A stretch of DNA of 64,000 nucleotides from a virus. Lineage: Duplodnaviria; Caudoviricetes. The DNA is taken from positions 1 through 64,000 of the IMG/VR virus record IMGVR_UViG_3300017784_005363; one strand, written 5' to 3'. A program made the translations under genes and the position numbers. The notes beneath the pieces are model-generated. The model had not been told where the DNA came from and did no database searches. It worked only from the letters and a program-made list of their open reading frames with translations. Positions 451-57,978 of this stretch are shown here, one piece after another. Position 1 is the stretch's first letter. Each line of letters opens with the position of its first letter.

Positions 451-642
451 TTAGTAGCATTGAGAGGATTCACACCTCCAACTTAGGCTGATGTTTTGGA
501 TGCCCACGTTATAATATTTAACTACAATGCTTATATGGTAAACAGCACTTCTCCTCTTATTTTTGTAGTTGTCGAGGATATAGAAGTACTGTTTGTGTAG
601 TTGTATTAAGTTACCTGCACACTCATGAGTAACAGACATCAT
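451..642 (-). CDS. Hypothetical protein (63 aa)
   Basis: ATG-initiated ORF on the same strand as its neighbours; no recognisable motif. Confidence 0.35.
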   Translation of the reverse strand: MMSVTHECAGNLIQLHKQYFYILDNYKNKRRSAVYHISIVVKYYNVGIQNISLSWRCESSQCY

Positions 643-55087: not shown

Positions 55088-55121
55088 AAAGCCAGTAAGA
55101 AATTAATCTTACTGGCTTTTT
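55088..55121. terminator. Bidirectional intrinsic terminator where the two operons converge
   Basis: Perfect 13-bp stem AAAGCCAGTAAGA-AATTAA-TCTTACTGGCTTT with T tracts available on both strands. Confidence 0.9.
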
Positions 55122-55122
55122 G

Positions 55123-55195
55123 TAGTGCTAGAGGGGATTGAACCCTCATGGACAGGTTGAAAACCTGCAATCCTAACCAATTAGATGATAGCACC
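55123..55195 (-). tRNA. tRNA-Glu (TTC)
   Basis: GGTGCTA/TAGCACT acceptor, GCAGG-TTTTCAA-CCTGT anticodon arm, GGTTCAATCC T arm; CCA not encoded. Confidence 0.95.
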
Positions 55196-55200
55196 ATTTG

Positions 55201-55273
55201 TGGAAATGCCTGGATTTGAACCAGGGACACCTAGATTTTCAGTCTAGTGCTCTACCAACTGAGCTACACTTCC
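55201..55273 (-). tRNA. tRNA-Phe (GAA)
   Basis: GGAAGTG/CATTTCC acceptor, CTAGA-CTGAAAA-TCTAG arm, GGTTCAAATCC; CCA not encoded. Confidence 0.95.
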
Positions 55274-55512
55274 AAATTACTTAATAATGACATAGGAATA
55301 CCTATGTCAAATCCTATAAAATTTGTAATTCTCTTTTCTTTTACTACTTGTAATTCATCACATAATTTTTCATACTTTTTTTCCAATATATCATATTCAT
55401 AATCTGAAATAATTGATATATCTACTAAAAGAATATCTTTACATTCATAATAAAAATATCTATATTTTCTAAGATTTTTATGAATTACATCTAATTCTTC
55501 TATTGTTGTCAT
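55264..55512 (-). CDS. Stand-alone protein resembling NAD-dependent DNA ligase subdomain Ia (82 aa)
   Basis: LRKYRYFYYE...ISDYEYDILEKKYEKL parallels the LigA Ia signature (YY...I[S/P]DxEYDxL); there is no adenylation domain. Confidence 0.65.
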   Translation of the reverse strand: MTTIEELDVIHKNLRKYRYFYYECKDILLVDISIISDYEYDILEKKYEKLCDELQVVKEKRITNFIGFDIGIPMSLLSNLEV

Positions 55513-55525
55513 AATTTATATTTAG

Positions 55526-55596
55526 TTGACCTAAAAGGACTCGAACCTCTAATGACTGCACCAAAAACAGTAGTGTTACCATTACACTATAGGTCA
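55526..55596 (-). tRNA. tRNA-Gln (TTG)
   Basis: TGACCTA/TAGGTCA acceptor, ACTGT-TTTTGGT-GCAGT arm, GGTTCGAGTCC. Confidence 0.95.
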
Positions 55597-55663
55597 TTTT
55601 CATTGTGGGTATAACATATTGATACACACTCAATCCTTAATCAAATTGTCATTAAGGCAATTG

Positions 55664-55747
55664 CAGAGAGTATAGGATTTGAACCTATGTGGGTGTTACC
55701 CCTTCTGATTAGCAGTCAGATGCTTTTAGCCACTCAGCCAACTCTCT
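55664..55747 (-). tRNA. tRNA-Ser (GCT)
   Basis: AGAGAGT/ACTCTCT acceptor, G discriminator, TCTGA-CTGCTAA-TCAGA arm, long variable arm, GGTTCAAATCC. Confidence 0.95.
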
Positions 55748-55749
55748 AG

Positions 55750-56082
55750 TTATTCACTATGTTCTATCATATGACAATTAGCACATAATATTTCAAGATT
55801 TTCTCTTTTATTATTATCTCTATTCCTATCTATATGATGAACTTGAAGTGCTTTTATATTTTCAAAACCACATTTTTCACAAACAGAATCTTCTTTAATT
55901 ATATTTCTATAAGATGCTTTACCTGTTGTATAGTTTGGATGATTTTCACCACTTTTAAATAAACTATTATTTACAGTATTAGAACAACTTCTTGAACAAT
56001 AACAGTTTCCTGTTTTTGACTTTTTTATTTGTGCTGGAGACCTATTAATCTCTTCACCACAATTTGCACAATTTACTTTCAT
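55750..56082 (-). CDS. Free-standing HNH homing endonuclease (110 aa; start corrected to ATG 56082)
   Basis: CANC...CSRSC zinc ribbon, GENHPNY, and CEKC...VHHIDRNRDNNKRENLEILCANCHMIEH HNH motif. Confidence 0.88.
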   Translation of the reverse strand: MKVNCANCGEEINRSPAQIKKSKTGNCYCSRSCSNTVNNSLFKSGENHPNYTTGKASYRNIIKEDSVCEKCGFENIKALQVHHIDRNRDNNKRENLEILCANCHMIEHSE

Positions 56083-56086
56083 ATTA

Positions 56087-56117
56087 CAAATGTACAAACT
56101 TATATTGGGAATACCAA
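56087..56117 (-). promoter_or_regulatory. Complete Bacteroidota promoter of the HNH cassette
   Basis: TTTG (56117-56114), 19-nt spacer, TACATTTG (56094-56087), then TAAT-ATG. Confidence 0.75.
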
Positions 56118-56125
56118 AACTTTTT

Positions 56126-56163
56126 TCCCAAAGCAGACCTTCTACCAATTGAAATACATCCCT
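56126..56163 (-). pseudogene. 5' half of tRNA-Pro (TGG), truncated after anticodon-loop position 38
   Basis: AGGGATG-TA-TTTC-AATTGGTA-GAAG-G-TCTGC-TTTGGGA, followed by AAAAA instead of the expected GCAGA; no T arm or 3' acceptor strand nearby. Confidence 0.8.
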
Positions 56164-56200
56164 AAATAAAAAAATCCCTCTATTATTAGTAGAGGGATTT
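56164..56200 (-). terminator. Intrinsic terminator downstream of groEL
   Basis: 10-bp stem AAATCCCTCT-ACTAATAAT-AGAGGGATTT followed by TTTTATTT on the minus strand. Confidence 0.85.
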
Positions 56201-56222
56201 GATTTGTTTTTAATTTATTTGA

Positions 56223-56297
56223 CTAAATTCCATCATAATCTTCCCTCAATGTAAATTGTGGTTCTTGAAATAATGGATAGCTGAATAAATTTTTCAT
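56223..56297 (-). CDS. Possible mini-protein (24 aa)
   Basis: MKNLFSYPLFQEPQFTLREDYDGI, preceded by TACATTTG (56324-56317) and followed by the terminator. Confidence 0.35.
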   Translation of the reverse strand: MKNLFSYPLFQEPQFTLREDYDGI

Positions 56298-56349
56298 ATT
56301 GGATTGATTTATACTGCAAATGTAAACAAAATATTTACATAAACAAATT

Positions 56350-57978
<1,629 letters not shown>

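Follow-up and report, generated by a model that had tools for sequence, protein, structure and literature searches.

How does a tRNA gene in a phage come to end at its anticodon loop, with a nuclease gene standing in front of the next tRNA? The question is raised by the tRNA array in the window analyzed here, a 64,000-nucleotide stretch that makes up the first 64 kb of an 85,418-bp record of an uncultured virus. The window is AT-rich and contains Bacteroidota-type promoter motifs, and its GroEL is similar to GroEL from phages of Flavobacterium and Cellulophaga. Read along the minus strand, the gene order is GroES, a 144-aa open reading frame (ORF), GroEL (57960-56350), an upstream promoter (P1), a 24-codon ORF, a terminator, a tRNA-Pro stump, a spacer carrying a second promoter (P2), an HNH gene, and tRNA-Ser(GCT), followed by tRNA-Gln, an 82-aa ORF, tRNA-Phe, tRNA-Glu, and a closing terminator (Table 1). 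As detailed below, comparison with related loci suggests that the tRNA array of this Bacteroidota-type phage has received a copy of a free-standing HNH homing-endonuclease cassette that targets tRNA-Pro, a reading to which we assign a probability of about 0.75.

Table 1. Features of the tRNA-Pro stump, the HNH cassette, and the surrounding tRNA array in the window
Feature	Position	Strand	Basis
Upstream promoter P1 (TTTG, 19-nt spacer, TACATTTG), ahead of the 24-codon ORF	56317..56347	-	Pattern match
Small ORF of 24 codons, between GroEL and the terminator	56223..56297	-	Read from the sequence
Intrinsic-terminator-like hairpin and T run, abutting the tRNA-Pro stump	56165..56200	-	11-13 pairs
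tRNA-Pro(UGG) stump, positions 1-38, last base at the end of the anticodon loop	56126..56163	-	38/38 identity with L001 and L006; truncated Rfam tRNA match
Inserted cassette, 377 bp (43 nt promoter/spacer, 333 nt HNH ORF, 1 nt)	55749..56125	-	Borders from the HNH-less X1 allele
Cassette promoter P2 (TTTG 56118-56115, 20-nt spacer, TACATTTG 56094-56087)	56087..56118	-	Pattern match and conservation
Inverted repeat TTGGGAA (56131-56125)/TTCCCAA (56111-56105), 13-nt loop with the -33 element	56105..56131	-	Sequence and predicted fold
HNH endonuclease gene, 110 aa, N-terminal Cys4 zinc ribbon and C-terminal HNH/Cys4 motif	55750..56082	-	Pfam, PHROG
tRNA-Ser(GCT), resident, right-hand border of the cassette	55663..55747	-	tRNA calls; X1 allele
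tRNA-Gln(TTG)	55525..55596	-	tRNA calls
tRNA-Phe(GAA) and tRNA-Glu(TTC), end of the array	55122..55273	-	tRNA calls
Array-closing terminator, common to the convergent 1553-aa gene	55088..55119	-	Terminator scan

The stump comprises the acceptor strand, the D-arm, the 5' strand of the anticodon stem, and a 7-nt loop with TGG. The Rfam tRNA model matches it as a 3'-truncated tRNA covering positions 1 to 38, with only 13.5 bits, and on this score alone the stump would be weak; comparison with L001, a contig from an 89,359-bp record, nonetheless establishes that the half tRNA is real. All 38 of its nucleotides are identical to the first 38 of an intact tRNA-Pro(TGG) called by ARAGORN in L001 (blastn-short, E = 5e-17), and the two sequences diverge exactly between tRNA positions 38 and 39, where the original prediction had placed the end of a tRNA-Pro 5' half. 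From position 39 on, L001 supplies the remaining (3') strand of the anticodon stem, then the T-arm and the closing acceptor strand. L001 was the only other IMG/VR contig recovered in an exact-match scan with the stump, and the same pattern gave 0 matches in JGI metagenome contigs and in 185,579 prokaryote genomes, with neither a host tRNA nor a prophage copy among them. The whole 85-kb record holds no second tRNA-Pro. The window phage is without any tRNA-Pro, and the function has been lost, not replaced.

A break in or beside the anticodon loop is also where bacterial tRNA group I introns reside, and one related locus, L017, has both halves of a tRNA-Pro around its HNH gene. Both facts would fit a split or intron-containing tRNA-Pro that still functions, whether through a group I intron, trans-splicing, or a permuted gene. 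However, neither a group I intron nor another RNA family was detected at the locus at E <= 10 in Rfam, where only the four intact tRNAs and chance matches appeared, and the insert is almost entirely ORF. Moreover, the tRNA-Ser gene begins 2 nt past the HNH stop, and no tRNA-Pro 3' half is present in the window or in the 85,418-bp record (estimated to be 91% complete), which we searched throughout, as had been advised, with a 3' acceptor/T-arm pattern allowing up to 3 mismatches. A functional split gene is thus highly improbable, in agreement with the earlier conclusion, drawn from the missing group I core and 3' half, that the insert is not an intron. We also considered and rejected an integrase-type insertion at the tRNA gene: no integrase lies nearby, the fragment left is the 5' and not the 3' one, and no duplicated att-like 3' end is seen.

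The ORF following the stump encodes an HNH protein. It matches Pfam HNH (PF01844) with 27.6 bits against a cutoff of 21.4 and PHROG HNH families with E values down to 4e-14, and the Pfam matches are of the HNH and zinc-ribbon types only, with no GIY-YIG domain of the SegB family. The motif is intact in its catalytic and zinc-binding residues: across 14 homologues, His82-His83, the Asn residues, and Cys68/71/100/103 never vary, and neither does the N-terminal Cys4 ribbon. To judge from dN/dS values of 0.17 to 0.39 across the five closest genes, the HNH gene is under purifying selection. It is present as a single copy in the record, lies outside any self-splicing intron or intein (no intron model matches, and the ORF has its own promoter and start), and stops 2 nt before the tRNA-Ser start at 55747, as originally described. 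The AlphaFold model of the protein is mediocre (pLDDT of 66); Foldseek against the PDB retrieved no structural homologue at E <= 0.001, and phmmer against PDB sequences gave nothing significant. Among cultured phages, tblastn recovered only distant HNH genes (<41% identity) in unrelated contexts. Gene callers tend to run the ORF upstream through the stump, producing a 132-aa, TTG-start ORF at 55750-56148 (-) in the window and, in relatives, 129- and 135-aa products (P0004/P0010); annotators should beware of such spurious N-terminal extensions of the HNH ORF through the tRNA stump.

Two alleles are without the cassette. In L001, the order is GroES, GroEL, a small ORF, the same terminator, and the intact tRNA-Pro(TGG), followed by 7 more tRNAs, and no homologue of the window HNH gene occurs in the whole 89-kb record. 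L001 is the HNH-less relative with an intact tRNA-Pro at the site that was to be looked for. A second allele emerged when contigs from public sequencing runs were compared with the window over positions 55100-56400. In run X1, from a wastewater metagenome, a contig of 776 nt agrees with 56351-56126 (226 nt) apart from one change and with 55748-55551 (198 nt), again apart from one change, and between these segments it has 172 other nucleotides where the window has exactly the 377 nt from 55749 to 56125. By this comparison, the cassette extends from the base after tRNA-Pro position 38 to one base short of the base preceding tRNA-Ser. Since the X1 allele shares the tRNA-Ser side, tRNA-Ser is a resident gene and not cargo. 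By analogy with L001, the 172 nt should contain the 36-nt tRNA-Pro 3' half plus about 136 nt more, so that the X1 strain would carry an intact tRNA-Pro. The first 180 nt of the X1 contig do not match the window; either the X1 strain is mosaic upstream or the contig is composite. A scan of viral contigs with the C terminus of the convergent 1553-aa protein gave no relatives. Altogether, nuclease presence and absence at a single site among close relatives, as in L001 and X1, is the pattern of a free-standing homing endonuclease.

Because k-mers shared among tRNA genes can lead to wrongly joined metagenomic contigs, we considered whether the stump might mark a chimeric contig joined within a tRNA gene. 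However, the left junction is identical in L006, which was assembled independently; the right junction is bridged by contigs from run X2, which span the HNH/tRNA-Ser boundary at about 97% identity; and homologous junctions occur in many loci. The probability of an assembly artifact is therefore very small.

We then examined how often this arrangement recurs. A protein search yielded 45 HNH homologues, and the DNA around nine of them was retrieved and the junctions were read; a profile scan of IMG/VR added 58 further loci, and a census was made of the 46 loci with full-length matches. The layout of tRNA-Pro stump, promoter, HNH gene, and next tRNA was found in at least nine other metagenomic loci, and the acceptor sequences of the stumps vary between phage backbones. 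Homologues with 61 to 81% identity stand behind tRNA-Pro stumps in L006, L008, L012, L013, L015, L016, and L017. The closest, L006 (81% identical HNH, same backbone type), has the identical stump with the same break, and tRNA-Gln lies 2 nt past the stop. L012 has a different stump that breaks after position 38 and is followed by tRNA-Tyr, and L013 has a drifted stump, with the anticodon changed and the D-loop GG lost, followed by tRNA-Gln. L008, L015, and L016 have stumps with another acceptor sequence (with the whole anticodon arm kept in L015 and an internal deletion in L016), and in all three the HNH stop is either overlapped by the start of an intact tRNA-Pro(TGG) or followed by it within 2 nt. 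L014 has a Leu-like stump and then an intact tRNA-Pro, and in L007 the cassette is preceded by an intact but unrelated tRNA-Pro. In L017 (2435-2880), the HNH gene lies between the two halves of a single tRNA-Pro: the 5' half is kept to the end of the anticodon arm, and 2 nt past the stop come the T-arm and an acceptor strand complementary to that of the stump. This clean split is likely a picture of a primary insertion.

In the census, members with at least 40% identity are almost all located within tRNA arrays, and an intact tRNA-Pro(TGG) within a few nucleotides of, or overlapping, the HNH stop occurs in L008, L014, L015, L016, L018/19, L021, L022, and L033. The blastn-short screen for stumps in the more distant loci was insensitive. 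In the HNH tree, the window groups with L006, L007, L012, and L013 in a supported subclade (98/92), which is nested within a supported 12-member clade whose other members carry a spare tRNA-Pro or split a tRNA-Pro. This nesting indicates that the window is a derived form that has lost the spare. In the window, the stump of the presumed target tRNA stands immediately in front of the nuclease gene, but the gene right behind the latter is tRNA-Ser(GCT) and not an intact tRNA with the same anticodon, as is present in L008, L014, L015, and L016. Distant family members with 32 to 42% identity (L027, L040, L044, L048, and L053 to L056) adjoin tRNA-Ala(TGC), not tRNA-Pro, which suggests that branches of the HNH family may be aimed at different tRNA genes.

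These recurrent junctions bear on whether the stump is merely a passive scar, the tRNA-Pro having been truncated by illegitimate or tRNA-tRNA recombination and the HNH gene being a passenger (a moron) or serving another role, such as packaging. Small HNH proteins do have other roles in phages, for example, in association with terminase. In addition, tRNA arrays are prone to recombination, array content differs between the window, L006, and L001, and a second, unrelated indel, that of the 82-aa ORF, is present in the same array. However, the HNH gene is not near terminase, and its clade often comes with a spare tRNA-Pro. Furthermore, one HNH clade is joined to tRNA-Pro stumps that are broken at positions 38 to 43 and unrelated in sequence, which is hard to obtain by chance. 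We thus consider a passive scar unlikely. Taken together, the intact gene at the site in L001, an X1 strain without exactly the cassette, and HNH relatives at stumps in many other phage backbones uphold the original proposal that an HNH cassette replaced the 3' half of tRNA-Pro.

How could a homing cassette have produced this arrangement? In a mixed infection, a cassette-free phage would have its intact tRNA-Pro(UGG) gene cut or nicked by the enzyme, either within the anticodon arm or immediately 3' to it, and repair of the break would draw on the cassette-bearing genome. The tRNA-Pro 5' part together with the terminator would serve as the left homology arm and the next tRNA gene as the right arm, and the sequence between them would be overwritten, here the tRNA-Pro 3' half and about 136 further bases. 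The carrier would be immune, as the target would no longer be present in its genome. In sister branches of the HNH clade, the cassette brings an intact spare tRNA-Pro behind the nuclease gene, and the window branch has lost this spare. Two observations count against this scheme. First, the intact downstream tRNA-Pro of L014 has the same anticodon arm as the L015 stump, so immunity is not explicable by the anticodon stem alone. Second, simple co-conversion of the flanks predicts that they diverge like the HNH gene (88% nucleotide identity), yet the flanks are identical.

The conservation of the left flank is pronounced. The window, L006, and L001 share all 38 nt of the stump, and their terminators differ by about one change, forming an identity island of 75 nt at the left junction in genomes that are otherwise 60 to 70% identical. 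Elsewhere in the same genomes, the 3' end of GroEL is 62 to 71% identical, the small-ORF region 59 to 61%, and tRNAs with the same anticodon 61 to 84% (20 to 31 of the first 38 nt). With a dS of 0.28 between the HNH genes of the window and L006, the chance of zero changes in 38 neutral sites is about e^-10. The identity would reflect either selection or repeated renewal by gene conversion with intact alleles, and a localized, repeated conversion would produce just such an island at the junction. We favor nuclease-stimulated conversion because stumps decay in L013 and L016 and because filled and empty alleles both circulate. More speculatively, the stump and terminator could be no dead scar but the left homology arm on which a tRNA-gene "knock-out drive" relies, and which it preserves, after shedding its spare tRNA; as a hairpin, in RNA or DNA form, they might also regulate the cassette promoter. 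We think this idea rather unlikely; if true, a kept homology arm would explain why 75 nt are identical while the other tRNAs are 61 to 84% alike.

Alternatively, the stump itself might be a selected functional element, either a 5' tRNA half or hairpin RNA that acts as a decoy or regulator or a DNA operator with an inverted repeat around the -33 box. Such a role is suggested by the identity of the stump in three genomes in which other tRNAs and the HNH genes have diverged, and by the inverted repeat. As had been noted from the sequence, TTGGGAA, from the anticodon loop, is complementary to TTCCCAA about 13 nt downstream; the two enclose a 13-nt loop and pair in the predicted minimum-free-energy fold, and the repeat recurs in L006, L008, and L016 (12 bp and z = -2.6 in L016). 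Also in favor of a role, the two loci that retain the 3' strand of the anticodon stem are without the repeat; in all, it is absent in L007, L012, L014, L015, and L017. Against a functional stump, the fold of the window stump plus spacer is ordinary (z = -0.84), the L013 stump has drifted and that of L016 carries an internal deletion, and L012, L014, and L007 are without the repeat. In addition, transcripts from P2 would begin downstream of the stump, with a strong terminator just upstream of it, and recent or repeated conversion from intact alleles explains the identity equally well. A functional stump is therefore very unlikely, and the earlier suggestion of a decoy for anticodon nucleases or a stable tRNA-half RNA finds no support in stumps that decay or carry deletions elsewhere.

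The cassette promoter P2 matches the Bacteroidota consensus, and the ATG at 56082 lies 4 nt past the -7 box. Both boxes of the promoter that had been described as TTTG-N19-TACATTTG are present, although the spacer is 20 nt rather than 19. Matches to the full consensus are not enriched in the window as a whole (6 against 4.7 expected), and 2 of the 6 fall in this locus. In 9 of 10 homologous loci, the distance from the -7 box to the start codon is exactly 4 nt, and 6 of 10 have a TTTG -33 box at 19 to 20 nt. Since this geometry is conserved in relatives, P2 is probably a real promoter, and the HNH mRNA is probably leaderless or nearly so. Most likely, transcription from P2 would read on from HNH, whose stop abuts the tRNAs, and co-transcribe tRNA-Ser, -Gln, -Phe, and -Glu. 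A strong terminator does lie right upstream of the stump, as had been observed (hairpin 56200-56172 plus a T run, 11 to 13 pairs). It had been deduced from this terminator that the HNH promoter is the only evident one for the four intact tRNAs and makes the cassette hard to lose. Both points are weakened by the HNH-less alleles. In L001, this terminator borders directly on tRNA-Pro, leaving no promoter between the two, and such arrays are evidently read from P1 by read-through of the hairpin. Likewise, the existence of the near-identical, HNH-less X1 strain indicates that the cassette is dispensable. A module with a Bacteroidota-type promoter, an ORF of 16 to 32 codons, and a terminator abutting the tRNA is conserved 5' of the first tRNA of the array in the window (56165-56347 (-)) and in L001, L006, L007, L008, L012, and L013. 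The small-ORF sequences are poorly conserved among relatives (59 to 61% at the nucleotide level), and the module resembles a tRNA-array leader or attenuator.

We next compared the cassette with known systems. Full-text searches turned up no published account of HNH cassettes truncating a tRNA gene or bringing along a spare one, and T4 SegB is the closest case. The free-standing GIY-YIG homing endonuclease SegB of T4 and T6 is encoded in a tRNA cluster and cuts inside tRNA genes, and its gene and flanks are preferentially inherited in coinfection (PMC2330249); it also drives rearrangement of the array (PMC13096335). Like the window HNH gene, segB is an intron-less nuclease gene within a phage tRNA array that is missing in close relatives. 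In contrast, SegB is a GIY-YIG and not an HNH enzyme, its gene lies between intact tRNA genes, and its preferred site is a T-arm motif of tRNA-Asn, whereas the window nuclease overwrote half a tRNA gene and left a stump. Group I introns with homing endonuclease genes in tRNA anticodon loops (PMC3984707) interrupt the gene at the same place (the loop or stem) and also have an endonuclease ORF in the insert; the window differs from them in that no ribozyme core (P3-P8) or 3' exon is found and the insertion is not phenotypically neutral. T4 mobE offers another system for comparison (PMC2790892), and an association of HNH genes with tRNA arrays is on record for cyanobacteria and phages (PMC8421152). 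As a precedent, nuclease genes are described as marking the boundaries of genetic exchange between phages (PMC10448857).

Nearest to the window are the sister cassettes with a stump, an HNH gene, and an intact tRNA (L008, L014, L015, L016, and L018/19), which belong to the same HNH clade (61 to 68% identity) and share the conserved promoter and spacer and a tRNA-Pro stump broken at positions 38 to 43. Unlike them, the window has no spare tRNA-Pro, and the resident tRNA-Ser is directly behind HNH. The tRNA gene region of phage T5 encodes HNH nicking endonucleases, with small HNH genes interspersed among the tRNA genes; these are not known to truncate tRNA genes. In Aeromonas phage Aeh1, insertion of mobE reportedly splits nrdA into two genes whose protein halves assemble into a working enzyme. 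There, the two halves still work together, whereas in the window the other tRNA half is gone and nothing can complement the stump.

Free-standing homing endonucleases are thought to persist beside their targets, or inside them with the gene kept working. Here, the presumed target has been destroyed outright by the nuclease cassette, and near-identical strains are in circulation with either the filled or the empty allele. Alongside the sister cassettes and their spare tRNA-Pro, the locus completes a natural series graded from "cut and replace" to "cut and delete," which can be used to test how selfish nucleases remodel phage tRNA arrays. Such arrays matter as counter-defense cargo (PMC13096335). 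The family also offers small (110-aa) nucleases whose target is likely long and specific to a tRNA gene.

Two further elements of the window deserve mention. At 455-531 (-), an element with an Rfam tRNA score of 45.4 bits was missed by ARAGORN; its arms are regular, but its anticodon loop, at 13 nt, exceeds the usual 7, so that it may be either a pseudo-tRNA or a tRNA carrying a 6-nt insertion. Within the array itself, the 82-aa ORF at 55264-55512 (-) lies between tRNA-Gln and tRNA-Phe, with its stop within tRNA-Phe, and matches only the N-terminal (Ia-like) part of an NAD-dependent DNA ligase (phrog_3869, E = 1.4e-5). In a relative of about 97% identity from run X1, exactly 55279-55524 is absent and 6 nt are found in its place; by this comparison, the segment is a second present/absent cassette in the same array.
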